From a virus: a stretch of DNA of 64,000 nucleotides. The stretch covers positions 9,025-73,024 of the IMG/VR virus record IMGVR_UViG_3300045995_000345; one strand, given 5' to 3'. Positions 1,902-51,256 of the stretch are shown here, one piece after another. Positions within the stretch are counted from its first letter, which is position 1. Each line of letters starts with the position of its first letter. The notes beneath the pieces were generated by a model that was not told the DNA's origin, did not search any database, and saw only the letters and a program-made list of their open reading frames with translations. The position numbers and the translations under genes were made by a program.

Positions 1902-2690
1902 TCAGTTTCCATCCTTGGGCAAATCAATTACAGCCGGCGCCGGCAGGTGACTCCTTCCATTTCCATTCGCCACCGTCACATTTCCGTCAACACGCATGTT
2001 GACCATTGGCGACAGCGGCGAGAACTTCGGGCTCCGTTTATTCTGGATCGCTTCCTTCTGCTCCGCGCGCCGCAACTCAATCATGGCTGCCGCGATTCCA
2101 GCCTGCCGGATCTTGTCGTAGGTATCGAGCATGAGGCCGTAGAGCGTGGCCCTGTCCTGCCTGAGCATCCTCAGCCTGACCAGCCTTTGGTCAAGGTTCT
2201 CTCCGGTCAGTGGATCCAAGGGTGCGGTATCGAGCAAGGCGATCCTCTCCGTTGTTGCCTTGGCTTCAGTCTGGAAACTCAGGTAGAGGGACAGGAGGCC
2301 ACCGCCAGTCATGGCGCCGATCTGCTTGAAGTGTTTGGCGAACAGGTCGGCTTGATTGATGGCGGTCTTGGCTACGTCTTCGGGAATTCCGATGGAGGTA
2401 AGAGCTTCTGCCGTCATGCAGACATTCTCCAAACGCTTCATTGAGGATTCAACGTCGCGAGCTAATGACGCTCCCGGATCTCTCGCATCCACCGCCGATG
2501 CTTTCTCAGCTCTGAGTTGATCGAAGACGGCCTTTAGCTTTGCGTTGTCCATGATCCGCAAGCGTAGCTTCTCCGGATTCCTTCCGAGCAATCTAGCCGC
2601 CCCCGCTATGGATCCAGACTGAAGCAAAGCCTCCCTTATCTGTAATTGCGTGGTTACTCTAGGAGCTTGCTCTGGTGTGGCGGTGTTCAT
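1902..2690 (-). CDS. Fis-type HTH/coiled-coil protein (regulator or displaced terminase small subunit)
   Basis: IREALLQSGSIAGAARLLGRNPEKLRLRI resembles an HTH; ATGA-coupled to the giant gene. Confidence 0.6.
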   Translation of the reverse strand: MNTATPEQAPRVTTQLQIREALLQSGSIAGAARLLGRNPEKLRLRIMDNAKLKAVFDQLRAEKASAVDARDPGASLARDVESSMKRLENVCMTAEALTSIGIPEDVAKTAINQADLFAKHFKQIGAMTGGGLLSLYLSFQTEAKATTERIALLDTAPLDPLTGENLDQRLVRLRMLRQDRATLYGLMLDTYDKIRQAGIAAAMIELRRAEQKEAIQNKRSPKFSPLSPMVNMRVDGNVTVANGNGRSHLPAPAVIDLPKDGN

Positions 2691-5600
2691 CTCCCAAACC
2701 CCGCAGCGATTGAACGGTAATCCCTTGCCCCACCACCGCCACCGGACATGGAGCTGGATCCGTAGATGTTCACGGCCCTGCGTTCTGTGCCGAAGAACGG
2801 GGTGAGCCCTCCCGTGTTGGCTCGGCTCTTTCGCACCTGCGCTCCGTAGGCGTTGAAGTTGCGGATGGCTGCCGACACTTCGGTTGCGCTGTCACCCAGA
2901 GAAGCCAGCATCTTCTGGTACTCGCCAGCGCTGGGGGACTTGTTGAACGTGGAGCGGAGAGGATTCATGCGCTCGTAAGCTTCAGCCACGTCTGCGTAGG
3001 GATCAACCTCCGGGTCAGTTACAGCCTTCAGGCTGGCGACTTCAAGGGCCTTGGAGTACGCCTCGCGGAATGCGGCCGGGTCGTTGACGTAGGCAGCCAG
3101 GACCATGTTTCCCACCCAAGGTTTCACCGGGTTGGGTATGGCGTTGATCATGCCGGCGGCTGAACCCCGGAAGATTCTCAGGTCAAGTCCCTGTTCCCTG
3201 CCGGCCACACGGATCAGGTTGCCCACGTTGATGCGTTCAACAATGCGGCGCTCGGTGTTGTCGAGGTCCAGCATGTTGTTGATCGCATCAAAGTTCTGGA
3301 GGTAACCAGTTCCACCAGCAGCCTGAATGAACTGGCGCCAGGTTGAAGCGTAGGTGGAATTCGACGGGCCTTGACGCGCCAGCTTGGTGAGCACAGCGCC
3401 AAGGTTCATGATGGTGGAGGCGACGAACACCCGGCTGTCCACGCTGAACTCTCGGGCAGTGGACACGTTGAAGATGGAGTTGACGGGTTCGCTGATGATT
3501 CCGAACGTGCCAAGGCGGGAGAACGAATCAAGCAGGGCGAGGGGCAGGTTCTCATCCAGCTTGAACGGAAGCTGGTTGGGCGCCTTGCCAACGATGTCCT
3601 TCTCGTACTCCTTGCGCATCACGGCGTAGGCGATGGTCACTGGAACGATGGCCAGGGTGAATGCTGTGGCGGCGGAAGCGGCTGCCCTCAAGGATGCTCT
3701 ACCCTCCGGCTCTCGCGAACTCTTCACCACGTCGGCGGTCTTGATCAGAGCCCAGCCAGTCAGGGGTGAGACAATGCGGCCGAAGGTATTGTTGAGCGTC
3801 CAAGGCGCACGCGTGGTGATGCCCGTGTTGAGCAGCACCTCGGTGTTCGCCAGCGCAATGACGGATCGAATCTGATCGAAGGTCAAAGGCTCCGCTCCAG
3901 AAAGTCGCTTTCTAGCAGCGTCCTCCAGTTGGATTCCGTTCTTCTCCAGCGTGGTGTAGAAGTACTTGAACGCCCGATCGTCCAGCATCAGCCCGCTCAG
4001 GTTCTTGCGCGAGAAGTTCGCCGTCTTGGCGCTGAACTTGAAGTTGGGATCCGCTGCATCTGCCGGGTGGTATTGGAAATAAAGGGCTGCCTTGTTGATC
4101 CCGTCGTTCGTGAACTCAAGCCACGTCCGAGCTGCGGCGCGCTGCATGATGATGTTGTTCATGGAGAACGGTGCCCACCACTTGAGGGTAGCGGCTGCCG
4201 TCTCAACGTTCTTCGGCTTGCCAACCCCAGTGCTCAGGAACACACGCGCTGCCGCGTTGACCCGCTTCGTTACGGCGCGCACCACTTCACCGGGCACCCT
4301 CAGCGGGGATGCCGTGCTTCTCCACGCCACAGCCCAGAGGGACGCCTCCGCTCCAAGCTGCTGCCGATAGCGGTCCAGCATACTTCTCCACCCACGGCGT
4401 TCGGTGAGCGAGTCAAGGTCCGCCGCCCCACCGCTGTTCAATAGGCGAGTGTTCTTGGCGTTCTCCGCGTTCATCCGCATCTCCCAGCTCATCGCCTGCC
4501 ACATGCTGTGCATCAACTCGAATGCGTAGTTCTTGTAGTACCCACCGAACAGGACGGACACCGCTTCCTTGCTGAACCCGAACTTCCGGAACGCATGGTC
4601 AGGCAGTGAGATGTGATCGGACACGGCGGAGGTGACGCCCTGCAGTACGAACCCGCTCATAACGCCAACCATGTCCATCAACGTCTGGTAACTCTGACCT
4701 CCGCCGCTGTGGGTGCGAATGAGTGAGAAGAGAACGTCCTCGTTCTTTTGGGCGTACTCGAGATTGTAAACGGCATTCTCGCGCATCTTCCTCAGTCCAG
4801 GCCGATCTCCATTCAGCCCGTTCTCCATGTAATCTTTCGACAGCGCTGGGTTGCTGGTCTTGATCGCCTCTGCCGCCTTGAAGTCATCCGCCAGCAGCGT
4901 CAGTTCAGTCTGGAGTTTCGCCAGGTTGGCCTTCAGGTCTGTGGCTCCAGCTCCGTAGGCATCCTGCTCTGCCAGGACGCGGATGTAGTTCGCGTAATCC
5001 TTGTGTCCGTAGGTTCGGAAGTTCAACCATCCAGGAGGGAAGTCCTCTCCCTTGCGCGCATCCAGGAAGGCGCGCCCAATCGTTCTCAAGTCGTTGCCCT
5101 GATCTCCTTCGTCCACCTTGGCGACCTTGTAGAGTTCGTCCATGTAATGTTGGAACGTGGCCATGGTCTGGCCTACGAAATCCGAGAGTGTATCGGGACT
5201 TCCACCAAGGTCAGCGTGCAGCGTCTCGGCAAACTTCAGGGCATCGAAGGTGCCATCGGCGCGACCAGCCGTGGCTGCTTGGTAGGCTCCCCTCAACTGC
5301 GCGTGCGGGGCCATGTCCACAACTCCGCCAACCTCCGGGCCTTTGAAGTTCGTTTGACCGGGCTTGGAAATCAGTTCGGCAACGAACGTCGTGTTGACTG
5401 GAGCGGTGAACCTCGCGTCCAGCACGGCCTGCAACGCTGCCCGATCCTTGGAGTGCAGCAATGCGACGGCGCTCTTGGTGAGGCCGACGTGTTCGACGGG
5501 GGTGGGATTGCCAGCATCGTCTGTCTCGGCTCCCATCCATGGAGTATTCCAGAACAGCTTCTCACTTCCCTTCATCCGCATCGCGAGAGCCACGGCTGGC

Positions 5601-8600
5601 CCTGCGGTGTAACGGCTCATGGTGCTCATCACGCCACCGATGACATCGCGGAAGATGACGCGCCCTCCAACCATGACATCGCGGATCTTGAGCTTTATCC
5701 CGCGTCGGACGTTCTGAAGATCCATCGCCGCCGCGAAGTTGGCACGGATGTACTTGTCCACCGCTTCCCATGCGCCCTTTCGCTCCATGCCTGGGAGCGC
5801 CTGCACGAACCTCTTTCCGGTCGCCATGAACTGGTCGAGCTGCTGCTCCGGAGTCAGCCTTGGATCGTAGAGGTGCTGCTCGGATTGGAACAGGCCGAGG
5901 ATGTTGTGGTAGAAGTTGGCGTGAAACTCAACAGGGTTGTCGATGCCGGTGGCGATCATTGCGGCACGGGCAAGTTCGTCCACCTTGTAGTAGAGCCGCT
6001 CGTTGATCGAGTTGCGAAGCGACTGCTCCCGGTTGTTGTGCGTCACGATCTGCTGCTCGATGGCGCGCGCTGTCTGCGTTCCGTGTTGCCGGAACCGCGT
6101 CCCGATGTCGCCCATGGAACGGAGGATCCAGCCGCCCAAGCCACGCTGAATATTCTCATTCGCGCTGTTCGCTTGACGCCCGGCAGCCTCTCTCACCACA
6201 CGTTCCAGAAAAGCGAATCTCCCTGATCCTTGAGATCCCGGGTGCTCCGCCATCCAGCTCACAATCTTCGTGAGATTCTGCTGAATATTCGCGTCGCTGT
6301 AGTTGTCGCCATGCTGAACCGTCTGGCGAAACTCAGGCTTCGTGAAAAGATCATCCTCAGTTGTCAGGTTGCTCTCGGGAACCAAGTAAACCGCGTTGTT
6401 CACCCACTTGAACTGCCGGCTTTGTTCTCCGAAGGTGCCTTCCTCCAGGTCGCGCATTCGTTCCAGCTTGCGAATCTCCTCAGCCTGAATCTTGGAAATG
6501 ATGTGCCACTCCACATCCCACTGCGAGAGTTGTGCCGCCTGCTTGAGCAGCTTCTCGTTCTCCGCCTTGATTGTGTCGAGGCGCTTTAGGATTCGGTCGG
6601 CGTGAACGAACAGGGTGCCCACGCGGGAGAGCTGGCCCACTGCAAGCGCCCGGGCATCCGGCTTGTTGCTGACCGCCAGTTTGATCATCTGGTTGATGGC
6701 GGTCTTCTGGACACCCTTGTCATCGTAGGCTGTCCGCACCGCCAGGAGATCCATCGCGATCGGCCGGCGTCGTGCGAACTGGAGAGCCAGGGCAAGGCGA
6801 GCTGGGTCGGCTGCGATGTTCCGAGCGTTCGGGTTGGCGCTGGCTGCCGCCGCTGCCTGCACGTCGCCTGGGGTCAGGGACACCTTGCCAGCGGATGTCA
6901 GTGAGACATTTCCCACGGTGGAGTAGTCGATGCCTAGCTCTGCTAGGGCTTGAAGCTGGTCGCCAAAGGCAATCTTGTTTCCCTCAATCGCTCCAGCCGC
7001 GATCCTCAGCGCTTCCTTGAAGCCAGTCTTAATGCCCAAGGCTTCAAGGATGGATTGCGCCCCGGTGCCAGTGGCCTCGCGCAAGGCGTCCTTCATGGAC
7101 TTCAGGAACTGGCCGGTCACCACGTCGAGGTTCTGGTAGTTCTGGGTCAGCTCGTAAAGCTCCAGGTTCGATTCGCTGATGCGCTCGGTGAGCTTGCCTT
7201 CGCCGAACTCATGATCGGAGAGTGCCTTGCGCGCCTGCCACCGGGTCCGGTCCTTGTAGTGAATCTCCAGGGCTGCCATCTGCGCCTTGGGCGCTTCGTT
7301 GGTCTGCTCCAGGTCTGCGAACGTGAGGCTGGTAGAAACTGGCTTTCCAGTGGTGCCGTCTTTGGTGAGCGCGCTGTTGATTGCGGCCTTGATGTCCTCG
7401 GCTGGATCTTCCCCGCCTTGAATAAGTGAGGCGAACGAGTTCTGAATCCACTCGGCCTCCGTGGCAACCGGCTTCCCTGTGGTGGTGACGTTGTTCCCGC
7501 TCTTAACGAGGGCGTCGAAGTACTTGGAACGTGCGGCGGCAACCTCATTCGTGACCGCCATCATTCGCTTGGCCTCGTTCTCGTACTCTCGCGTTGGGCT
7601 GATCTCTGTGCGTTCCCCGGCGAGGCCCTTGATCTGGCGGTAGCGCATCTCATCCGCATTCATCGGCCCCGTGTTGGGTCGCAAGACGCGCCACGCCTTG
7701 TCCCTCGCCGCCGCCGCTTCGTCGTAGTTCTGGAGCAACGTGGTGACCAGCTTGTAGGCTTCGTCCGCAACGTTCTTGTCGCTGGTCAGGCCAACTGCCT
7801 TGAGCAGGTTCGCCACCAGGCGCTTGAACGCATCCCACAAGGACAACGATGTCGGGTCACCGAAGTTCGGAGGCAGCGCAATCTTGGTGAGCTTGTCTCG
7901 AAACTCCGGGTCTGACAGCACGGCAACGGCGAACTCATCCGATCCAACCAGACCTTCCGCTGACTGCTGCCACGTCAGGCCCGCTGCCTTTGCGGCTTCA
8001 ACCAGTGTGTGCAATTTTTGCACGAACTCCTGTTCGCCAACTGTCAGCGATGCCGGGTTGTTCCTCGCACGCAAGAGCAGTCGCGAGATGAAAGGATGCA
8101 GCGCCTCGTGAACAACTGAGACATGGAAGTCCTCCACGTTCCGAGCGTTGGCTGGGAACACGGTGGCTTCATTGTTGGCCACGCTGTAAGATCCACCAAG
8201 CGGAGTCCCGACTTGAGTCTCTGGAGAGATTGTCAGCTTTGCCTCAGTGACATCCGCTCTTCCGGCAAGGAACTTGGCTAAGGCAGCCAGTTCCCCACCC
8301 GCCTCCGCCACCTTCTCCAAGGCAGCCGCCAGCGTCGGGTAATCCTTCTTCAACGCGGCGATGTTCATCTCGCTCAGCAACCCGTGCTGAGTGGCTGGCA
8401 GCTTGCTCTTGGCCAGTCGTTTGAGATTGAAGATGACGTTCTCCACGGAGTCGGGAAGAAGCTCCGGCGCCGTGATCGTCTGCGCATCCAGGTCAACGGC
8501 GTCCATCGCGTCTGGATCCAACTGGCGTTCGCGGGATGGCGTGACGGCTTCTTGAGCCACGTCCAGGGCGGTCTCGATTCCGTGCGGAGTCCTCGCCTTC

Positions 8601-11600
8601 GTGATCATGTCGAGGATCTGATCCCTCTGACCATCACTCAACCCGCCGTCTTCGTGCAGACTCAAGATGACGCCAACCGCCTCCGCCTTCAGCGGCACAA
8701 GGGCGCGCATCTTCTCCGACATCGCGTCTAGAGTTGCTACGGAGGTGGGGCTTGGTTCAAGTCTTGCACTTGTTCCGGTCTCACTTGGGGCTTGCGCGGG
8801 TTGCGCTGCTGCCGGCGGCGTGCCTTGGCCAACGCCTGCGACAATCCCACCATCAGCAGCATTATCCCGTTGCGAATTTCCGGTCGCGCCTTCTGCAATG
8901 GCGGAGGAACTTCCAGCATTTGTGTTCTCATTGGAAAGAGCCTTTCTAACTCCATTCCAGTTCGTGATGATGGTTGGCAGTGTTTCATCCAACATTCGCT
9001 GGATCATTGCCCGGTCTTCGATGGAGTCGTAGGAGGCCGCAACGCTTGCCTGAAGTTCTTTCGCGAACTGCTGAATCAACTCGGGCGACGTAACGACGTG
9101 GTCCTTTTGAAACGCCACGATCTGCGCCACCATCGGCATGTTGTTCTTCACCCAATCAGCAAACCTGAGTTGCTCCTTCCGGTTCAACGCCTGCTCTGGT
9201 GTGAAGTTCCTCGCGTTGACGATGTCTCCGGACGCCGTCCTCACGTTGTCGGTTGAGTATCCGTAGGCGTCATCCCTTGCCTGCTTCAGTCCACCGAACT
9301 CGCCCTCGTAATCAGCCACGCTGCGGATGGCTCGCGCAAGCTGGTTGCGTGGCGACCGCAAGAGCATGGACGAATACGGCACGAACCCAGCCTCCAGCAA
9401 ATCAATCACCCCAACTGTGTCCTTGGCCCCATCACCAATGGCGAATCGGAATTGCAGGTTGGCAATGACTTTGTTCGCGCGGAGCTTCTTGCTCACCGCG
9501 TTCACGTCGCCCTTGGTCTTCTTCAGCGCCTTTCCGAGTTCCGTCAGCGTGACTGTCTTGGGTGAAGACTTCAACGCCTTGGCCGCTTCCTTTTTCGTAA
9601 TACCGAAACCCGCCGCCGCCTCTTCCAGCGTGTAGGTGATCGCCCTGTTGCGGTTGTAGGCCAGCGAAAGAATGACGCGGCCGGCCGGGGTGATCCAACC
9701 AGCAACCCGTCGGCTCAACGAAGAGGACTGCTTGCCCACCGCAACCTGCTTGCCCTTCTCACTTCTCTTGGCTGTGCCCACCTGGGACTGGGCAGTGAGC
9801 AACGTGCCGATCAGCTTCGCGGCGTATTCCTTCTCGCCCTGAGTCTTGGCTTCGTTGTAGAGCTTGTGAGCTTCAGACAGATCGTGACCGCCACCAGTGT
9901 CGTCCTTCGTGTCGTAGTAACCCGGGAGCTTGGCGATCTTGCGAGCGGCCTCTTCGCTGTCCAAAGTAGCCTGCGCATCAGAGGATTCGTCAGGCGTCAT
10001 TCCTGGCTCGTCACCAGACGTCGGATCTTCCACGCGGCCGAATGCGTTTTCGACTGCGGTGGATCCAGAATCATCAACGAGCGAATCACCATGCCCGCGT
10101 TGAGACGGATCTTCCGAAGGCTTGGCTGCATCCAGAGAACCATACTCGAACTCCACCGCTGCCGGCCCGATGGCTTGAACGATGGATTGCTCCTCCGCTT
10201 TGAAGTTGGCAATGGCACGCTCCAGCTTTGAGATGCTCAGGATCAGATCAGCGTGTCGGTCAACGAGCGCCTCGGCGTCCTTGTCAGCCTTCTTCAGCTC
10301 GGCAATGAGCGATTCGACCTGCTTGAGTTCAGCCTGCTGGGCAGCCAAGTCGGTCTTGAGATACTCCAGGTTCTTCTTGCCATCGTAGTTCTCTCCGAGC
10401 GCATCGACCTTGGCAACGACGTTGGCGGCGAAACCGAGAGCTTCAGGCTTCAGTGCTTCTTCGACTTTGCGTACTTCTTTGCCCACGACGGGAGCTTGTC
10501 CTTTGACTTCACCTTGGACGGGAGCTTGCTGAACGACGGTGTTTCCTTGGCCCACCGCTTGGCCCACGGTTGGTGCGTTGAGAATGCGAACTTCTGTTGC
10601 GAGGTGCTGAGGAATGGGGGCATTGGATTCCTTGGTTGGTGCTGACTGGCTGCGCGCTTGGATCTTGGCAGCCATCTCGGCGGGCCTGGGTTGGCGAGAC
10701 TGACTGAGCCGCTGAATGCGTGCGGCCATATCCGCTGGGCGCGGAGCCTGCGTCTTGAAGTACGTCTTGAGCGCGGCAACTGCGGCCTTGGGAGTTTCGG
10801 GAGGAGAAGCCTGTTGAGCCTCCGATGGAGGCGGTGCTTCCTTGGTAGCGAGCGCTGCGGGTGCAGCCGGCACAACAGGTGAAGGCGATTGGGCAACCTC
10901 AGCGTTGCGCGTCACGGTCGGGTCACGCATGGCTTCAGCGTAAACCATCAGGTGCGCTTCAACGGGCGTGCCAGCCGGGATCATCTGCGTGTCCACGGGA
11001 ACGAACGTAGCGCCAGCCTTGACGAACAGTTCGAGCTTGTTGCCCCCGTCCTTCTGCGGCGTCACCACGGAACGGAACAGCACCTTGCCCGTGTCATCCT
11101 TGGCTTCGAGGATGCGTGGTGTCAGCGGAACTCCCAGCTTGCGCGATTCGGCCCACGTCAACTGTTGGTTCACGTTGCGCTGCTTCACCACATCAGGAAT
11201 CGAGGCTTCTGTCTTGGGATCATATCGAAGCCCCAGCTTGGCAGCCATCTGTTGCAGGTCGGCGCGCGTGAGCGTGTCCTTATTTAGCAGTTCGGCTACA
11301 TCGCGAACCTCCGGGCTTCTCTGGTCTTCGGGAACGGACTGAACCAGATCCTTCGCGAACTGGTAGAGCGGCACCTTGGAGACGGCGGGGCGTTCAGCTT
11401 CAGCCGTAGCCGAAACCCCACCCGCACCAGTTTCGCTGGGAACGCTGGCTGGTGCGGGCGTTGATGTCTCGGTAACCGGAGGTGCTACTTGCAACTCTTG
11501 GGTCCCTTGACCTTGGGCATTTGCTTCTTCGCCATTGGGAGTCTCACCGCCTTTCTCGTTGGAAAGTGACTTTCCAAGTTCGTCGCTTCTGGCTTGAAGG

Positions 11601-13087
11601 ATCCTGGTCCACTCCTGATTGAAGATTGCTTTCGAGTCTGAGTTGAGTTTCAGGATCTCAAGCTCGACGGCGGGGTCGCCGGCAGCCTTGCGCTGCACCA
11701 GTAATGCGATGCCGGCCCTGTCAACATCGTAGATGTCCTTGGCTACGTCGCTCCCAATCGTCCCGGTCTTCAGCGCGTCCGGCGGCGGAGGCGGTTCGTT
11801 CGTCGCCTCCTTCTTGGGCGGGGGCTGCTGCTCTCCACGCTTCTTGCCTGTGAACAGTTCGGTAACGGCGGACGTGGCGCCACCGCCCATGGTCCCGGCG
11901 ATACCAGAGTTGATGATGTCATCCTTCTCCGCCTGATTCAGTGGAGCCCAAAGCTTGCCCTCGTCATGGTCATGCAGGAAAGCTCCGTAACGCTGGCCGG
12001 CAACGTCAACAAGCGATTGGAACGCCTCAGTGCTCCCTTCCCATGGCACCGTCTTGGCGACCTCTGGGGCGAGGCGTGTGACGTAGGCGTAAAACGGCTT
12101 CTTCAGAGGTTCAACCGCCGCGTCTGTCAGCTCGCGGCCGGCCCTGCCCATTGCCTTGCCCAACCGTCCGACGATGTAGGTGGGCAGGACTGTATCGGGG
12201 ACCGCCTTTATGCCACCACCCACCAAGGCGATGTTGGCCGCGTCATCCTGGCTGAGTTCGCCCTTGTTCACCTGATCCTGCAACTCCATGAACAACTCGC
12301 CGGAGTTCTGCTGCATGGACGCAGCGGCACCACCCGTGAGGTTGCCGATCATCTGGCCGACCGTTGCCGCCTGGCGAACCGTTGCTGCCCGCAGGAGTTC
12401 CTTGGCCGGAGCGCTGAGTGCGTCCTTCAGGATCGTGCCAGCTGCGTACTTCTCGATCTCACCCTTCAGTTCAGCCGACACCTTCGCCTTCACCAGCGCC
12501 TTGAGGGCTCCACGTTCAAACAACCCAGCCGCCGCGCCCGGAATCCCGCCCACGCCAGCACCAGTCGCCGCACCAATGGCGGCGCCCGCACCCGCCGCAA
12601 CCACGGACTCACCAATCGACGGCACCAAGTTGCCAAACTGGTTGGCCGCATAGAGCATCGCCGTGCGCGGCCCGCTCACGTCACGCCAGTTGGCCACTGC
12701 CGGCTGGTAGTAATCCGCCGCCTCTTGCTGTTGCTCCGCTGCCTTGCCGATCAGGGTCTTGGCGATGTTAGTCGCGCCTAACTTCTGCGCCACCATGCCG
12801 CCTGCCCCGTAGGCAAGCGCCTGAGTCTGGTCAATGCCCGCACCCAGAGAACCCTTGAACTCCTGCCACGTTGACGTGTTGGCAATGCGGTCCTCCTTCT
12901 GGATTCGGTCCCAGTCAGCGGCGAAGTCCGGGTACTCCTTGAACACGTCCCTGCCTTGGGCGGAATACTCGGGGGCCTGAGCGGCGTAGAGCCGTGTGAT
13001 GTCGTCATCCTTGAGGGCCGACATGTCCTCCGGATTCCAACCCAAAGGGTTGTTCTTCCGAACGAAGTCAACGAGTTGGTTGGGCAT
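2687..13087 (-). CDS. giant (3466 aa) ejection/internal virion or polyvalent protein with a zincin-like HExxH motif
   Basis: Last of three Ala/Gln/Gly-rich helical proteins after the GNAT, in the podovirus ejection-protein position; VVHEALH at 8096-8110 followed by DEFAVAVLSDPEF. Confidence 0.75.
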   Translation of the reverse strand: MPNQLVDFVRKNNPLGWNPEDMSALKDDDITRLYAAQAPEYSAQGRDVFKEYPDFAADWDRIQKEDRIANTSTWQEFKGSLGAGIDQTQALAYGAGGMVAQKLGATNIAKTLIGKAAEQQQEAADYYQPAVANWRDVSGPRTAMLYAANQFGNLVPSIGESVVAAGAGAAIGAATGAGVGGIPGAAAGLFERGALKALVKAKVSAELKGEIEKYAAGTILKDALSAPAKELLRAATVRQAATVGQMIGNLTGGAAASMQQNSGELFMELQDQVNKGELSQDDAANIALVGGGIKAVPDTVLPTYIVGRLGKAMGRAGRELTDAAVEPLKKPFYAYVTRLAPEVAKTVPWEGSTEAFQSLVDVAGQRYGAFLHDHDEGKLWAPLNQAEKDDIINSGIAGTMGGGATSAVTELFTGKKRGEQQPPPKKEATNEPPPPPDALKTGTIGSDVAKDIYDVDRAGIALLVQRKAAGDPAVELEILKLNSDSKAIFNQEWTRILQARSDELGKSLSNEKGGETPNGEEANAQGQGTQELQVAPPVTETSTPAPASVPSETGAGGVSATAEAERPAVSKVPLYQFAKDLVQSVPEDQRSPEVRDVAELLNKDTLTRADLQQMAAKLGLRYDPKTEASIPDVVKQRNVNQQLTWAESRKLGVPLTPRILEAKDDTGKVLFRSVVTPQKDGGNKLELFVKAGATFVPVDTQMIPAGTPVEAHLMVYAEAMRDPTVTRNAEVAQSPSPVVPAAPAALATKEAPPPSEAQQASPPETPKAAVAALKTYFKTQAPRPADMAARIQRLSQSRQPRPAEMAAKIQARSQSAPTKESNAPIPQHLATEVRILNAPTVGQAVGQGNTVVQQAPVQGEVKGQAPVVGKEVRKVEEALKPEALGFAANVVAKVDALGENYDGKKNLEYLKTDLAAQQAELKQVESLIAELKKADKDAEALVDRHADLILSISKLERAIANFKAEEQSIVQAIGPAAVEFEYGSLDAAKPSEDPSQRGHGDSLVDDSGSTAVENAFGRVEDPTSGDEPGMTPDESSDAQATLDSEEAARKIAKLPGYYDTKDDTGGGHDLSEAHKLYNEAKTQGEKEYAAKLIGTLLTAQSQVGTAKRSEKGKQVAVGKQSSSLSRRVAGWITPAGRVILSLAYNRNRAITYTLEEAAAGFGITKKEAAKALKSSPKTVTLTELGKALKKTKGDVNAVSKKLRANKVIANLQFRFAIGDGAKDTVGVIDLLEAGFVPYSSMLLRSPRNQLARAIRSVADYEGEFGGLKQARDDAYGYSTDNVRTASGDIVNARNFTPEQALNRKEQLRFADWVKNNMPMVAQIVAFQKDHVVTSPELIQQFAKELQASVAASYDSIEDRAMIQRMLDETLPTIITNWNGVRKALSNENTNAGSSSAIAEGATGNSQRDNAADGGIVAGVGQGTPPAAAQPAQAPSETGTSARLEPSPTSVATLDAMSEKMRALVPLKAEAVGVILSLHEDGGLSDGQRDQILDMITKARTPHGIETALDVAQEAVTPSRERQLDPDAMDAVDLDAQTITAPELLPDSVENVIFNLKRLAKSKLPATQHGLLSEMNIAALKKDYPTLAAALEKVAEAGGELAALAKFLAGRADVTEAKLTISPETQVGTPLGGSYSVANNEATVFPANARNVEDFHVSVVHEALHPFISRLLLRARNNPASLTVGEQEFVQKLHTLVEAAKAAGLTWQQSAEGLVGSDEFAVAVLSDPEFRDKLTKIALPPNFGDPTSLSLWDAFKRLVANLLKAVGLTSDKNVADEAYKLVTTLLQNYDEAAAARDKAWRVLRPNTGPMNADEMRYRQIKGLAGERTEISPTREYENEAKRMMAVTNEVAAARSKYFDALVKSGNNVTTTGKPVATEAEWIQNSFASLIQGGEDPAEDIKAAINSALTKDGTTGKPVSTSLTFADLEQTNEAPKAQMAALEIHYKDRTRWQARKALSDHEFGEGKLTERISESNLELYELTQNYQNLDVVTGQFLKSMKDALREATGTGAQSILEALGIKTGFKEALRIAAGAIEGNKIAFGDQLQALAELGIDYSTVGNVSLTSAGKVSLTPGDVQAAAAASANPNARNIAADPARLALALQFARRRPIAMDLLAVRTAYDDKGVQKTAINQMIKLAVSNKPDARALAVGQLSRVGTLFVHADRILKRLDTIKAENEKLLKQAAQLSQWDVEWHIISKIQAEEIRKLERMRDLEEGTFGEQSRQFKWVNNAVYLVPESNLTTEDDLFTKPEFRQTVQHGDNYSDANIQQNLTKIVSWMAEHPGSQGSGRFAFLERVVREAAGRQANSANENIQRGLGGWILRSMGDIGTRFRQHGTQTARAIEQQIVTHNNREQSLRNSINERLYYKVDELARAAMIATGIDNPVEFHANFYHNILGLFQSEQHLYDPRLTPEQQLDQFMATGKRFVQALPGMERKGAWEAVDKYIRANFAAAMDLQNVRRGIKLKIRDVMVGGRVIFRDVIGGVMSTMSRYTAGPAVALAMRMKGSEKLFWNTPWMGAETDDAGNPTPVEHVGLTKSAVALLHSKDRAALQAVLDARFTAPVNTTFVAELISKPGQTNFKGPEVGGVVDMAPHAQLRGAYQAATAGRADGTFDALKFAETLHADLGGSPDTLSDFVGQTMATFQHYMDELYKVAKVDEGDQGNDLRTIGRAFLDARKGEDFPPGWLNFRTYGHKDYANYIRVLAEQDAYGAGATDLKANLAKLQTELTLLADDFKAAEAIKTSNPALSKDYMENGLNGDRPGLRKMRENAVYNLEYAQKNEDVLFSLIRTHSGGGQSYQTLMDMVGVMSGFVLQGVTSAVSDHISLPDHAFRKFGFSKEAVSVLFGGYYKNYAFELMHSMWQAMSWEMRMNAENAKNTRLLNSGGAADLDSLTERRGWRSMLDRYRQQLGAEASLWAVAWRSTASPLRVPGEVVRAVTKRVNAAARVFLSTGVGKPKNVETAAATLKWWAPFSMNNIIMQRAAARTWLEFTNDGINKAALYFQYHPADAADPNFKFSAKTANFSRKNLSGLMLDDRAFKYFYTTLEKNGIQLEDAARKRLSGAEPLTFDQIRSVIALANTEVLLNTGITTRAPWTLNNTFGRIVSPLTGWALIKTADVVKSSREPEGRASLRAAASAATAFTLAIVPVTIAYAVMRKEYEKDIVGKAPNQLPFKLDENLPLALLDSFSRLGTFGIISEPVNSIFNVSTAREFSVDSRVFVASTIMNLGAVLTKLARQGPSNSTYASTWRQFIQAAGGTGYLQNFDAINNMLDLDNTERRIVERINVGNLIRVAGREQGLDLRIFRGSAAGMINAIPNPVKPWVGNMVLAAYVNDPAAFREAYSKALEVASLKAVTDPEVDPYADVAEAYERMNPLRSTFNKSPSAGEYQKMLASLGDSATEVSAAIRNFNAYGAQVRKSRANTGGLTPFFGTERRAVNIYGSSSMSGGGGGARDYRSIAAGFGR

Positions 13088-46453: not shown

Positions 46454-46617
46454 TTGACTTCCTGAAATACTCAGTTACTCCTTGAGTGAGTCCGAAAGGA
46501 TTCACATCGACTCAACCCGGTGAAGACAGACACGACAATTCCGAACCTCCCACACGTTGGGGCAAGACGCCAGTCCTGCCCGGTTGAGCAGCGCGTGGGA
46601 GGTTCTGAGGTGTCACG
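46454..46617 (+). promoter_or_regulatory. structured leader RNA, copy B (C4/CI antisense-like architecture)
   Basis: TTGACT at 46454; CATCG-ACTCAACC-CGGTG at 46505-46522; stem 46543-46559/46589-46605 with bulge GGTTGAG at 46582-46588. Confidence 0.7.
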
Positions 46618-46806
46618 ATGAAGTTGATATTCAGCAAGCAGGAGATCGCGCAGGCGGTCGAAGTTTACTGGGGCGGCGAATTACTCAACGCGGCAGAGAA
46701 TTACACGGAGGGTGAGTGTGGTGTTTTTTACGACATGGAAACCGGGGAAATAACCGCTGAGATTGAGATCACCCAAAAGTCGTTGAGTGAAAGGAAGGCC
46801 GAATGA
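46618..46806 (+). CDS. small acidic hypothetical protein
   Basis: GAGGTG RBS; ATGA-coupled to the initiator. Confidence 0.6.
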   Translation: MKLIFSKQEIAQAVEVYWGGELLNAAENYTEGECGVFYDMETGEITAEIEITQKSLSERKAE

Positions 46807-47705
46807 GCGCCCCCGCTTCCTTCCCGTTCTACCCCGACGACTTCCTGGCCGGAACCATGGAGATGTCCACTGATGAGGTTGGAGCCTACATCCGGCTCCT
46901 CTCTCACCAATGGAACCGCGGTTCAATTCCGGTTCAAACCGAAAAGCAACAACGGTTGGCTGGGGGCTCAGTCTCGGCCGACGTAATTTCCAAGTTTGAG
47001 GTGTGTGAAGACGGCCTTCTCCGGAACGCGAGGATGGAGTTTGAGCGAGAGAAGCAATGTAAGTATCGTGATGCTCAAGCACTTAAGGGTCGCCTTAGTG
47101 GCCAGGCAAGGCGAACCCCGGTTGAACCCCGGTTGAACCCCGGTTCAGTTTTGGTTGGAACCCAATCGAACCCCCCCGTCCCCGTCCCCGTCCCCGTCCC
47201 AATTGTACAAATACCCAGCAAGCCGGGCGGTGGAGTTTCGGAATTACCGAAAGACGCAGAAGACATCGAGGCTCAGATCGACCAGCTCTACTCCGCCTAC
47301 CCGAAGCACGTCGGCGTAGCGAATGCGAAGAGGGCGATTCGGAAGGCATTGAAAAAGGCGACGTTTGAAGTCCTCTTCGAAGCCGTCACTGCCTTTGCAG
47401 TTTCCCAGGCCAGTAGGTCGGCGGAGACGAAGAAGTTCATTCCCGACCCGGCGACGTGGTTCAACGCGGAACGTTGGACAGACGACCGCACCACATGGAC
47501 GGTTGGGCAGAACGGCTCCACGGTCCCGCCCCACAAGCAGCTTGACGCGGTCAAGCTCTCGATCGAGACGCACCCCGCGAACCGGGAGTATGTCGGCTAC
47601 GACGAACGGAAGGTCACGCCAGAGTTGAAGACCCAGCTCTCCGACCTTCGGAAGGCGGCAGAGCAGTTGACGCTTCGGATCGCGAAAGGATCCATCCATG
47701 GGTAA
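46803..47705 (+). CDS. DUF1376/YdaU-like replication initiator
   Basis: FPFYPDDFLAGT..MS..EVGAYIRLL..QW..G; C-terminal YPKHVG..FIPDPATWFNAERWTD. Confidence 0.85.
   Translation: MSAPASFPFYPDDFLAGTMEMSTDEVGAYIRLLSHQWNRGSIPVQTEKQQRLAGGSVSADVISKFEVCEDGLLRNARMEFEREKQCKYRDAQALKGRLSGQARRTPVEPRLNPGSVLVGTQSNPPVPVPVPVPIVQIPSKPGGGVSELPKDAEDIEAQIDQLYSAYPKHVGVANAKRAIRKALKKATFEVLFEAVTAFAVSQASRSAETKKFIPDPATWFNAERWTDDRTTWTVGQNGSTVPPHKQLDAVKLSIETHPANREYVGYDERKVTPELKTQLSDLRKAAEQLTLRIAKGSIHG
47113..47145. repeat. iterons (GAACCCCGGTT x3), putative replication origin
   Basis: Three exact 11-bp tandem repeats inside the initiator gene. Confidence 0.7.
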
Positions 47706-49125
47706 GCAGTTCCTCAGTGATATGCCCATCGACAGGCTCCCGCCGCACGCACCAGAGGCGGAGCAAGCCGTGATCGGATGCTGCCTACTCACAAACGACG
47801 CCATAGATGAAGTCTTGGAAACTGGACTTTCCAGTGAATGGTTCTATGACCTTCGCTTGCGGGATATGTGGACGGTGTTGTCTACGATGCGCGCTGCCGG
47901 AATTCCCATCGACTTGATTTCGCTTCCGCAGAAGTTGCGCGACGCTGGGAAGCTGGAGGCCGTTGGTGGGATTGCCTATATCACCGCCCTGATTGACGGA
48001 GTTCCGAGCGCAAGCATAGTCGGATACTACGTCGGGATGCTTCGCGATAAGTGGCTTTTGAGGAAGGCTATTGCCGTCTGCACTGAGCATGTGTCGAAAG
48101 CCTACGAGGGTTGCGACGCTGAGGATGTTGTGGCTTCACTTGAACGAGACTCACTCGCCATCCGTGATGACAAGTCTGACAAGCGCGCCGAGACAATGCA
48201 GACCATCGCAAGGCGTGTGGTGGAGAACATCGAGAAACGGATGACTTCCGGTGAGGGAGTTATCAGCACAGGCTTCACGGATCTGGACAAGTACACTTCC
48301 GGAGGGCTGAAGGATTCCGAGATGTGGATCATGGCGGCGCGCCCGTCACTTGGTAAGACTTCGCTCGCGATGAACATCGCCGCTAACGTCGCTGACGCTT
48401 TCCGGTCCGAATGGTTATCCTCGCACGCGAAGGAAGAACCCTACGCAGGCCAAAGCGTTCTCGTGTTCAGTTTGGAGATGACCGCCGAAGCCCTCACTGA
48501 GCGCATGGTGTCCAGCTACGCTAGGGTGGGAACCCGAAGGACGGAGGCGTTCAACGAACGGGAAATGGTAAGGCTCACCACGGCGGTTGGTGTCGTGTCC
48601 AAACTCCCACTCATCATTGAAGATTCTCCAATGACGCTTGGCCGGATTATGGCCAAGGCGCGCCGGCACGTTTCGCGTGACAACACGAAGGTGATCGTTG
48701 TGGATTATCTCCAGTGCATTCTGAGCACCCCCGACGCGCGCTCCCAGGATCGAAGGGTTGAGGTTGACGGGTTCAGCCGGGGCCTGAAGCAAATGGCGAA
48801 AGAGCTGAAGGTCCCCGTGCTGGTTGCCGCCCAGCTCAACCGGGATCTTGAGCGCGAAAAGAACCGACGCCCGCGCATGTCTGATTTGCGCGAGGCTGGC
48901 GGCATCGAAGCCGACGCGGACTTCATAGGGTTCCTTTACAAGCCGTCATCAAAGGGCGAAGAAGAGGAATCGGATTCGTGTGCCGTGAACCTGCTCATTG
49001 GGAAGCAGCGCAACGGAATGGCCAACGTCGATGTCGCCCTAACCTTCCTCAAACAGTTCACGCGTTTTGAAAGCGCCGCAAAAGTATGCTCGGAAGACTA
49101 TCGCCCCACCCACTCGGACCCATGA
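47698..49125 (+). CDS. dnaB: replicative DNA helicase
   Basis: PPH..EAEQAVIG, AARPSLGKT, FSLEM, VDYLQ, AQLNR, DLREAG.IE.DAD and KQRNG motifs. Confidence 0.95.
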   Translation: MGKQFLSDMPIDRLPPHAPEAEQAVIGCCLLTNDAIDEVLETGLSSEWFYDLRLRDMWTVLSTMRAAGIPIDLISLPQKLRDAGKLEAVGGIAYITALIDGVPSASIVGYYVGMLRDKWLLRKAIAVCTEHVSKAYEGCDAEDVVASLERDSLAIRDDKSDKRAETMQTIARRVVENIEKRMTSGEGVISTGFTDLDKYTSGGLKDSEMWIMAARPSLGKTSLAMNIAANVADAFRSEWLSSHAKEEPYAGQSVLVFSLEMTAEALTERMVSSYARVGTRRTEAFNEREMVRLTTAVGVVSKLPLIIEDSPMTLGRIMAKARRHVSRDNTKVIVVDYLQCILSTPDARSQDRRVEVDGFSRGLKQMAKELKVPVLVAAQLNRDLEREKNRRPRMSDLREAGGIEADADFIGFLYKPSSKGEEEESDSCAVNLLIGKQRNGMANVDVALTFLKQFTRFESAAKVCSEDYRPTHSDP

Positions 49126-50118: not shown

Positions 50119-50739
50119 ATGAAACCTCTCTCCCCCGAATTCCACAAGTACGCTTGGGACTTCAAACTCCTGCGCCGCCGCGACCGAATCGCCATGTTCA
50201 TCAAGACCCGCGGAAAGTCAGTTTCTTACGAGGTGGTGAAGGTGAAGGATCAAAAGGCTCACACCTGGCCGGCTGGGAATACCACCGAAGCCTGCGAGAA
50301 TCTTCCAGGCTCCAACGAGTGGGGCGTAAAAGGCTGGACCTACCAGACCGAAGAAGACGCTCTCCACAAGTTCAACGCTCTTGCGGCCAGCCAACAATCC
50401 CAAGGCGAACCTGCTTCGTCTCCCACGCCCAGCACCCGCCCCCGAAGCGTATCTTCGATGGCATGTGACAGCCACATCCCAGATGGCTTCCTTCCCAGGG
50501 CCGGCATTGATGTCGGTGACGGTTGTAGAGCGTACAGCCGCGACACCAGCCCAGATGCTCCAGGGTATTCTCGCGCGACCTCCAGCTCCAGAACCGAGCC
50601 AGCGTCAGTCCAATCTTCAACCAACGGCGCGGAGTCAGATGCTCTCTGCGCACAGCTTGCCGCCACTCGATCACTCGCTTCTTTGCGCACAACCAAAATA
50701 AAGGGTTCATCGATTCTGGATCTGCCGGTTGACGGCTGA
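50119..50739 (+). CDS. hypothetical phage protein
   Basis: YEVV...E.LPG.NEWG..GWTY N-terminal domain; Ser-rich tail. Confidence 0.55.
   Translation: MKPLSPEFHKYAWDFKLLRRRDRIAMFIKTRGKSVSYEVVKVKDQKAHTWPAGNTTEACENLPGSNEWGVKGWTYQTEEDALHKFNALAASQQSQGEPASSPTPSTRPRSVSSMACDSHIPDGFLPRAGIDVGDGCRAYSRDTSPDAPGYSRATSSSRTEPASVQSSTNGAESDALCAQLAATRSLASLRTTKIKGSSILDLPVDG
50372..50710 (-). CDS. Cys-rich protein (CxxC..C..CGC..C), antisense
   Basis: CRGC, QC, GCGC and GCW motifs; protein-like composition. Confidence 0.5.
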   Translation of the reverse strand: MNPLFWLCAKKRVIEWRQAVRREHLTPRRWLKIGLTLARFWSWRSRENTLEHLGWCRGCTLYNRHRHQCRPWEGSHLGCGCHMPSKIRFGGGCWAWETKQVRLGIVGWPQER

Positions 50740-50782
50740 ACAGACGCAGCGTAACTCAACGCTGAACCAAAGCAAACACACC

Positions 50783-51256
50783 ATGAAGACACCGGGACAG
50801 ATCAACTTCGAGGCGTTCCATAAAAGGCCGGAGCCGCCGAATTATTATACCGATTCGCAGTACTCTCAGAGGGACTGGGAGCGCGCTGCCCAGGCCGTCA
50901 TCAAGGACTACGAACAGCGCCAGTCCCAGATCACCAGCGGGGGCATCGTGAAGCCTACGACGCCACTCTCGCTCGGACCAGAAGTCGGAAGATGCTCGGA
51001 GTGCCATCGATGCACATGGGCTCGTAGCGATCTTGGAACTCCATGCGGAATGACACAACCAGATGGATCGCGATGCTTGGGAGTATTTGGAGAAGCCGTA
51101 TTTGTTTCCGAATCGACTCAACCCTGCATCACCGGAAACTGCATCCAGGCCGGCGGCTACCCCAATGCCACCATCACCATGGACGCTGACATCACCCAGA
51201 TCCAGAACTTCCCATCCAACCTGCTCTTCAAGCGGGTCAAACTCACACTCGAATGA
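50783..51256 (+). CDS. hypothetical protein with a Zn-ribbon
   Basis: KTPGQINFEAF..WERAAQAV; CSEC..CGM..C. Confidence 0.55.
   Translation: MKTPGQINFEAFHKRPEPPNYYTDSQYSQRDWERAAQAVIKDYEQRQSQITSGGIVKPTTPLSLGPEVGRCSECHRCTWARSDLGTPCGMTQPDGSRCLGVFGEAVFVSESTQPCITGNCIQAGGYPNATITMDADITQIQNFPSNLLFKRVKLTLE

Follow-up and report, generated by a model that had tools for sequence, protein, structure and literature searches.

The segment lying ahead of the replication genes in this uncultured freshwater phage raises the question of whether it is a genuine RNA leader and, if it is, how it could act on the genes behind it. The window, that is, the whole 64-kb stretch of DNA analysed here, comes from a 73-kb viral contig with a completeness rating of 93%, of which it covers bases 9025-73024. 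One fold is common to two segments of it lying about 45 kb apart, copy B (46454-46620) and copy A (1050-1219). Judged from comparative sequence analysis, copy B is a real structured mRNA leader ahead of the phage's replication genes. The parts of the two copies are listed below, all folds of the leader being predictions.

46454-46459, + strand: -35-like box TTGACT of copy B; TTGAC is common upstream of the leader starts of the family
46486-46505, + strand: H1, probably at the transcript's 5' end, a hairpin of 8 bp capped by a GAAA loop (fold); an equivalent hairpin precedes H2 in relatives
46505-46522, + strand: H2 of copy B, with stem CAUCG/CGGUG around the 8-nt loop ACUCAACC; the leader start GTG falls within the stem's 3' strand (fold)
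46511-46517, + strand: loop site CTCAACC, which pairs with the bulge of H3 (sequence and covariation)
46520-46621, + strand: leader ORF of 33 codons, starting at GTG, running through H3 and ending with TGA (46619-46621) over the ATG at 46618; frame conserved in the family
46534-46614, + strand: H3, the long putative gate hairpin, with its main stem at 46543-46605 and 23 pairs below the bulge (fold and covariation)
46582-46588, + strand: 7-nt 3' bulge GGTTGAG of H3, the complement of the H2 loop (fold and covariation)
46607-46610, + strand: Shine-Dalgarno-like GAGG of operon gene 1, paired with a conserved UUC in the base of H3 (fold)
1050-1055, + strand: -35-like box TTGACA of copy A (sequence)
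1102-1119, + strand: H2 of copy A, with stem CAUCG/CGAUG, loop ACUAGACC and the site CTAGACC at 1108-1114 (fold)
1117-1299, + strand: leader-like ORF of copy A (MKHTTTVP...), 60 codons, outside the coupling frame and entering the downstream gene (sequence)
1131-1213, + strand: H3 of copy A, with its main stem at 1140-1204 and the bulge GGTCTAG at 1181-1187 (fold and covariation)

Copies A and B are 77-80% identical in alignment, and both fold far more stably than their shuffled counterparts (z = -4.6 and -5.1). The proposed structure comprises 38 pairs including the loop-bulge helix, and 97.3% of the cells of the A/B alignment pair under it. Compensatory changes, affecting both sides of a pair, were found between the two copies at 10 of the 38 pairs: two of the seven in the loop-bulge helix, seven of the 23 in the lower H3 stem and one of the eight in the upper stem. 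When the partners were slid by one to three columns, only 32-43% of the cells paired, with zero or one compensatory pair, and none of 500 shuffles reached the observed values. The copies differ exactly at the paired positions of loop and bulge, the H2 stem being constant save for one G-U wobble. An earlier, sequence-only reading of this DNA had proposed a covarying RNA leader on the + strand in which the loop complements the bulge in each copy; the complementarity is confirmed in the sequence for both copies, and the covariation agrees with the proposal. Among the sequencing runs listed as containing the sequence, none is of RNA; contigs from four riverine DNA runs reproduce copy B, except for one low-depth C>A at 46551. 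This A, seen in run X5 at a depth of about 4, would break a lower-stem pair of H3 (C-G to A-G) and may be an error.

The genes around the two copies define what such a leader could control. The 5' neighbour of copy B is an unannotated ORF of 323 aa, with genes for RecT and a PD-(D/E)XK exonuclease located shortly upstream, and on its 3' side a chain of overlapping + strand genes begins. These genes, and the one behind copy A, are the following.

46618-46806, + strand: operon gene 1, 62 aa, without family match; its stop overlaps the start of the initiator gene in the ATGA at 46803 (46803-46806)
46803-47705, + strand: DUF1376-type replication initiator or primosomal protein (Pfam PF07120, E 2.2e-9; PHROG 9327 and 270)
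47698-49125, + strand: DnaB-like replicative helicase (Pfam DnaB_C, E 3.8e-73; PHROG 19)
1217-1897, + strand: cysteine-rich protein of 226 aa behind copy A, with a weak HNH-endonuclease match (PHROG 119, E 3.6e-5) and no Pfam family

Copy B thus stands at the head of the chain formed by the 62-aa ORF, the DUF1376 initiator and DnaB, as the sequence-only reading had placed it. The initiator and DnaB genes overlap by 8 nt (47698-47705), and through this chain of start-stop overlaps the opening of gene 1 could spread down the operon behind copy B. A PHROG scan of eight neighbouring ORFs retrieved no families. Elsewhere in the window, a single ORF of 3466 aa (2687-13087, - strand) is the first of a long series of minus-strand ORFs that presumably make up the virion module.

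The element was then sought beyond this genome. No match to Rfam 15 at gathering scores was found in the 64-kb window, and a permissive search (E up to 10) around either copy returned chance matches only (families of miRNA and snoRNA and, on the opposite strand, a truncated retron msr with E 4.4). Likewise, blastn against phage records gave no match, and searches for related loci with single proteins yielded nothing with the HNH-like protein and one weak locus with the initiator. The H2 consensus, used as an exact pattern on viral contigs, retrieved 43 loci, which were discarded as chance, since they had no downstream TTCCGAA or hairpin. Homologues of the initiator were collected, 24 of them being aligned, and their loci were retrieved (80 viral, 80 metagenomic and 8 genomic). 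A covariance model built from two sequences (R1) gave only weak matches, just upstream of the initiator gene, and was replaced by a model of nine sequences (R2). Using R2, 38 of 169 related loci match at E <=1e-4, every one on the strand of the initiator gene and upstream of DUF1376 initiator genes. The match ends at most 64 nt from the initiator protein match in 19 of the 21 distinct loci, and ends 165 nt upstream of it in L092 and 231 nt in L194.

After duplicate removal, 27 distinct leaders were retained, including both copies of the window. Many of these sequences are related, and their counts should not be read as counts of events; in addition, the family was sampled via one protein, and cassettes placed before other genes, as copy A is, are under-represented. 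Among nine viral records searched over their whole length, two copies were found only in the window's phage, one copy in six records and none in two. Related contigs also occur in genome bins labelled Verrucomicrobiota, Pedosphaera, Opitutales and Rubrivivax (L207, L209, L210 and L213), and L207 is the only one of the four carrying the leader. Since L207 equals in length a viral record with terminal repeats, its bin label may reflect the binning and not the host. No description of this element was found in open-access papers and preprints (supplementary files aside), and none of the open-access papers listed for DUF1376, judged by title or abstract start, concerns an RNA leader. The element, being absent from Rfam 15, is a candidate for a previously unlisted RNA family and, as such, for the RNA catalogues.

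The family keeps a constant order of parts, namely the TTGAC box, H1, H2, the leader start, H3 and the downstream start. H2 has a stem of 3-7 bp and a loop of 6-9 nt, and a hairpin with the pairing site in its loop is present in all 25 tabulated sequences. In the same 25, the leader start (ATG in 23 and GTG in two) is located between -3 and +14 nt relative to the 3' terminus of H2; this GTG or ATG is part of the H2 stem in the two window copies alone, the other sequences having it 0-14 nt downstream of H2. H3 reaches -44 to -77 kcal/mol; its 3' bulge measures 6-9 nt and has 18-31 pairs below it, and its upper part is free to vary in length. In an alignment of 22 sequences, which was fitted to the covariance model and hence is biased towards it, the lower H3 stem shows both-side changes in 19 of 20 pairs, and 96.8% of its cells pair, compared with 33-49% when slid. 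An independent MAFFT alignment of nine sequences recovered both-side changes in 12 of 20 H3 stem pairs. The 22 sequences contain about 60 G-U cells against 14 non-standard cells, and therefore the + strand is the strand of the folded RNA. A link between the lengths of linker and stem was left unused, as it largely reflects how the parse splits the outer pairs.

A G-rich, Shine-Dalgarno-like motif lies at most 20 nt from the downstream start in 22 of the 27 leaders, and in the folds it falls within the base of H3. At the other end, 13 of 30 family segments have TTGAC on the plus strand at 62-79 nt before the leader start, compared with one of 30 on the minus strand. A strict sigma-70 scan of the window copies found no full promoter on either strand, and the putative promoter consists of the -35-like box only.

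The pairing between loop and bulge was assessed across the family with windows anchored to the fold: the 35 nt before the leader start were compared with the bulge and its neighbours, and the longest perfect complement was scored. This design replaced a structure-blind complement search in wide windows, which was too noisy, cognate and non-cognate scores overlapping. Cognate complements of at least 6 nt were recovered in 26 of the 27 distinct sequences, and of at least 7 nt in 23. In contrast, only 67 of 702 non-cognate combinations reached 6 nt (Fisher p = 5e-24 versus cognate), of which about half join leaders sharing a specificity and the rest reflect the partial likeness of related loops. 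The 27 leaders contain 19 different pairing sequences, and close relatives show how these change together: L190 and L132, 92% identical, differ by one compensated position, and L050 and L194, 84% identical, by two. Therefore, the excess of cognate matches, together with the compensated changes, indicates that the loop-bulge pairing is real and kept by selection. The distal site is an unpaired bulge located 36-46 nt before the downstream start, with the whole 3' arm of H3 between it and the Shine-Dalgarno motif. Positions involved in the pairing showed no excess of substitutions in five close pairs (9/68 versus 132/952 flanking, p = 0.61), and therefore nothing indicates selection for new specificities. 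The ACTCAAC once noted as a possible second target is indeed present at 46683-46689, but it is not conserved, a match of at least 6 nt being found in 3 of 24 cognate and 38 of 536 non-cognate comparisons.

The leader ORF is the other feature retained through changes of length. Counted from one start codon to the other, the distance is 2 mod 3 in 24 of the 27 sequences and takes nine different values between 98 and 131 nt, and therefore an ORF of 33-44 codons ends at, or overlapping, the downstream start. The junction is ATGA in 22 of these 24 coupled leaders, GTGA in L091 and TGATG in L092. This conservation of frame gives a binomial p of 3e-9 for all sequences and of 1.4e-3 when only the 11 distinct lengths are considered. 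Copy A (distance 100, ORF to 1299), L065 and, to some extent, L086 (stop 4 nt before the start) are exceptions, so that stop-start coupling is not universal in the family. The short GTG ORF with an ATGA overlap at 46618, already recognised from the DNA, is confirmed, and the conservation of its frame and stop gives it greater importance than had been claimed. The parallel ORF then described for copy A does start at 1117 with MKHTTTVP, but it extends over 60 codons and has no stop-start overlap. The codon phase over the conserved anti-Shine-Dalgarno stretch varies between members, which argues that the act of translation matters and not the peptide.

Tentatively, and with slightly less confidence than doubt, we regard copy B as the 5' leader of the replication-operon mRNA, acting as a translational gate with the leader ORF as its key and the loop-bulge pairing as its lock. 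As the conserved anatomy suggests, the very stable H3 (46534-46614) would pair the GAGG of operon gene 1, keeping the operon shut by default. The key, suggested by the frame conservation, would be a ribosome that translates the 33-codon ORF from the GTG at 46520, unwinds H3 and hands over at the ATGA, after which the 62-aa gene, the initiator and DnaB would follow via the further start-stop overlaps. We infer fairly safely that H3 masks the ribosome-binding site, and that translation of the leader ORF opens H3 and couples into the operon. As for the lock, the H3 bulge GGUUGAG would kiss the H2 loop CUCAACC, and the resulting complex would hinder ribosome loading on the leader ORF; covariation demonstrates the pairing itself, and its role as a lock is inferred less safely. 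Expression from a given transcript would then be brief, limited to the time before its own bulge has been synthesised or to periods when that bulge is unoccupied, and free RNA bearing the bulge could additionally shut other copies. Copy A would be another such cassette, ahead of the HNH-like gene, with a loop-bulge sequence of its own and with gate and lock, but without the stop-start overlap. The transcription start is putative here, and so are leader ORF translation and the sign of any kissing effect.

The lock is favoured because the bulge is the only conserved partner of the H2 loop, and because H2 lies within the footprint of a ribosome at the leader start, the start codon being part of the H2 stem in both window copies. 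Nevertheless, the bulge is unpaired even with H3 closed, and the kissing could be a mere constitutive tertiary contact. Moreover, the best-studied system with the same parts, that of the IncI and IncB plasmids, uses the pairing between loop and distal site to activate, as described in PMC8053102. Activation of this kind is the main rival to the lock, and we hold it to be possible, if rather doubtful, for this phage: as in IncI-alpha, IncB and IncL/M, the loop-bulge pairing, formed after the opening of H3, would hold the region open or aid re-initiation and would be required for initiator synthesis, and a putative negative regulator would be added that competes for the H2 loop. All four parts known from the plasmids (mechanism in PMC8053102) are present, and a replication initiator would be their target: the leader ORF ends at the rep start, a hairpin covers the rep ribosome-binding site, a stem-loop stands upstream beside the leader start, and its loop has a distal complement. 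However, the geometry fits less well, as the distal site is exposed and far from the Shine-Dalgarno motif, being neither adjacent to it nor masked in a stem; pairing of the bulge does not compete with the re-closure of H3, and the downstream ribosome-binding site is strong already. In addition, the -35-like box expected for a countertranscript is confined to the one minus-strand segment mentioned above, against the 13 on the plus strand, although such scans cannot exclude a transcript. A different proposal, which we consider unlikely, is that of a same-strand riboregulator acting in trans, in which H3 or a terminated leader would be released as a stable small RNA whose bulge binds the H2 loops of other transcripts and shuts their leader ORFs. 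This would work like P1/P7 c4 and P4 CI and would give copy-number control or immunity between related phages, copies A and B being orthogonal channels. The presence in one genome of two copies addressed differently at exactly the loop and the bulge, and of 19 specificities among 27 sequences, agrees with such a regulator, and PMC4825925 provides a precedent in P4 CI and in a short RNA whose target is its own read-through mRNA. A T run of at least 4 nt follows H3 in 11 of the 27 relatives, in which H3 could end a short RNA, but the window copies have none (longest T runs of 2 and 3; the terminator scan was empty on the + strand). Besides, an RNA bearing both loop and bulge is expected to pair with itself before any other, there is no conserved second target, the pairing positions show no substitution excess, and the Rfam C4 family model does not match. 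The earlier suggestion of two orthogonal versions of one switch is thus borne out as regards different, internally matched specificities in one genome, but for trans action there is no direct evidence, and the absence of a substitution excess at the pairing sites does not favour it; the processed RNA of 63-65 nt envisaged in that reading stays hypothetical.

Two further explanations were considered. Phage leader hairpins shaped like H3, with a long, almost perfect helix and an asymmetric bulge, can be RNase III sites, and the 18-31 pairs below the asymmetric bulge would suit a double-strand-specific ribonuclease; its cut in H3 would free or destroy the downstream ribosome-binding site, and the H2 loop would mask the bulge and tune the cut. 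We judge this very improbable, as it leaves the conserved frame of the leader ORF and the position of its stop unexplained. Alternatively, complementary sites in RNA are inverted repeats in DNA, and with an initiator gene adjoining, the two 7-bp sites could be inverted half-sites for a protein, or the hairpin an origin structure. This is hardly credible, since the numerous G-U pairs would become A-C mismatches in the opposite strand, one site always occupies a hairpin loop and its partner a bulge, the stems covary and the ORF frame is conserved; nor are there extra flanking copies, CTAGACC occurring three times in the window against 3.5 expected, without enrichment.

The T runs found in relatives deserve a separate comment. 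They consist of 4-6 T after H3, within the last 24 nt before the downstream start (L052, L050, L082, L145, L152, L194, L181, L091 and L103 are among the 11), and are often paired with the A-rich start of the leader ORF. In these relatives, H3 with its T run resembles an intrinsic terminator, and transcription attenuation may also operate in them.

Replication initiators need small and tightly controlled synthesis, and RNA control of initiators is textbook knowledge for enterobacterial plasmids and a few coliphages. The I-complex plasmids, whose stem-loop carries a conserved UUGGCG motif in its loop, are among the closest in design to the present family. In these plasmids, a leader ORF, a hairpin over the initiator ribosome-binding site and a stem-loop whose loop pairs with a distal site bring about activation, according to PMC8053102 and PMC10724649. 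Like IncI-alpha ColIb-P9 (repY-repZ), IncB pMU720 (repB-repA) and IncL/M, copy B and 24 of the 27 family members, although not copy A, have a leader stop overlapping the start of the initiator or its operon; the hairpin over the ribosome-binding site, the upstream stem-loop by the leader start, the distal loop partner on the same mRNA and the replication-initiator target are further likenesses. In contrast, there is no sequence or Rfam relationship, and the initiator is a DUF1376 protein in a phage. Here the pairing is present and covaries, its distal site being a bulge left exposed at some distance from the ribosome-binding site, and the loops vary (19 versions), none of the 25 tabulated ones carrying UUGGCG. 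Unlike in the plasmids, no sign of a countertranscript promoter was seen beyond the single minus-strand TTGAC, within what such scans can detect.

Plasmid R1 (CopA/CopT-tap-repA) follows a related logic, its initiator requiring leader-peptide translation that is controlled by an RNA pairing next to the leader start (PMC8053102). The present family would share this dependence of the initiator on a leader peptide, with RNA pairing beside the leader start; however, the R1 regulator is an opposite-strand countertranscript, whereas here the only conserved partner of the loop is on the same strand, inside the leader ORF. Same-strand designs are known from phages. In P1/P7 c4, regulator and target come from one promoter and one strand, and the short complementary sites co-vary between related phages. 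The C4 antisense RNA family (Rfam RF01695) comprises P1/P7 c4, P4 CI RNA and Salmonella IsrK. Our element resembles it in its same-strand design and in short complementary sites that change together between related phages, but it differs in fold, matches no Rfam model at gathering or permissive thresholds and has one target site, upstream, instead of two flanking the regulator. P4 CI controls replication genes, and IsrK, which uses translational coupling, targets its own read-through mRNA (PMC4825925).

A comparable logic is also found in toxin-antitoxin loci. The hok/sok-type mRNAs (mok-hok) are held inactive by long-range pairing within the molecule, and their downstream gene needs translation of an overlapping upstream frame. 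Fold-back inhibition and coupling would be shared with the present leaders, but hok/sok is a toxin-antitoxin system with a countertranscript and without loop-bulge kissing. Altogether, the element resembles the leader-peptide logic of the I-complex and R1 plasmids and that of the same-strand phage riboregulators, and is a member of none of them. The same control logic would thus be used, with unrelated sequence, in uncultured freshwater phages, and the unusual feature of the family is that the partner of the target loop is a same-strand bulge inside a translated leader.

The family offers at least 19 natural, matched loop-bulge pairs of 6-8 nt on one scaffold, on which swaps of pairs can distinguish between a cis lock, a cis activator and action in trans. 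Should the pairs be orthogonal, RNA engineering would gain a ready-made set of parts. It is also conceivable, although we rather doubt it, that the loop-bulge pair is a programmable address by which leaders, or H3 hairpins released from them, recognise each other in trans. In that case, freshwater phages would fall into immunity or incompatibility groups defined by the 19 pairing sequences, the window's phage would run two mutually blind channels, one on the replication operon and one on the HNH-like gene, and the family would be a natural set of orthogonal same-strand riboregulators on one scaffold.

Several minor observations concern the pairing sequences themselves. CTCAACC and its complement occur 18 times in the whole window, compared with 10.4 +/- 2.7 in dinucleotide shuffles (none of 100 reaching 18), in a comparison uncorrected for codon bias. 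At 51111-51123, the 13-nt ATCGACTCAACCC is identical to the complete H2 loop of copy B plus a portion of the H2 stem; the ORF around it (50729-51256) has no family match, the local fold is not significant (z = -0.2), and a rough estimate of the chance expectation for such a match is about 0.015. Finally, L050 compared with L052 and L194 has a nearly identical promoter, H1 and H2 stem, the H3 modules differing and the loop changes matching them. This pattern suggests cassette recombination, the loop probably having been re-matched afterwards or simultaneously.
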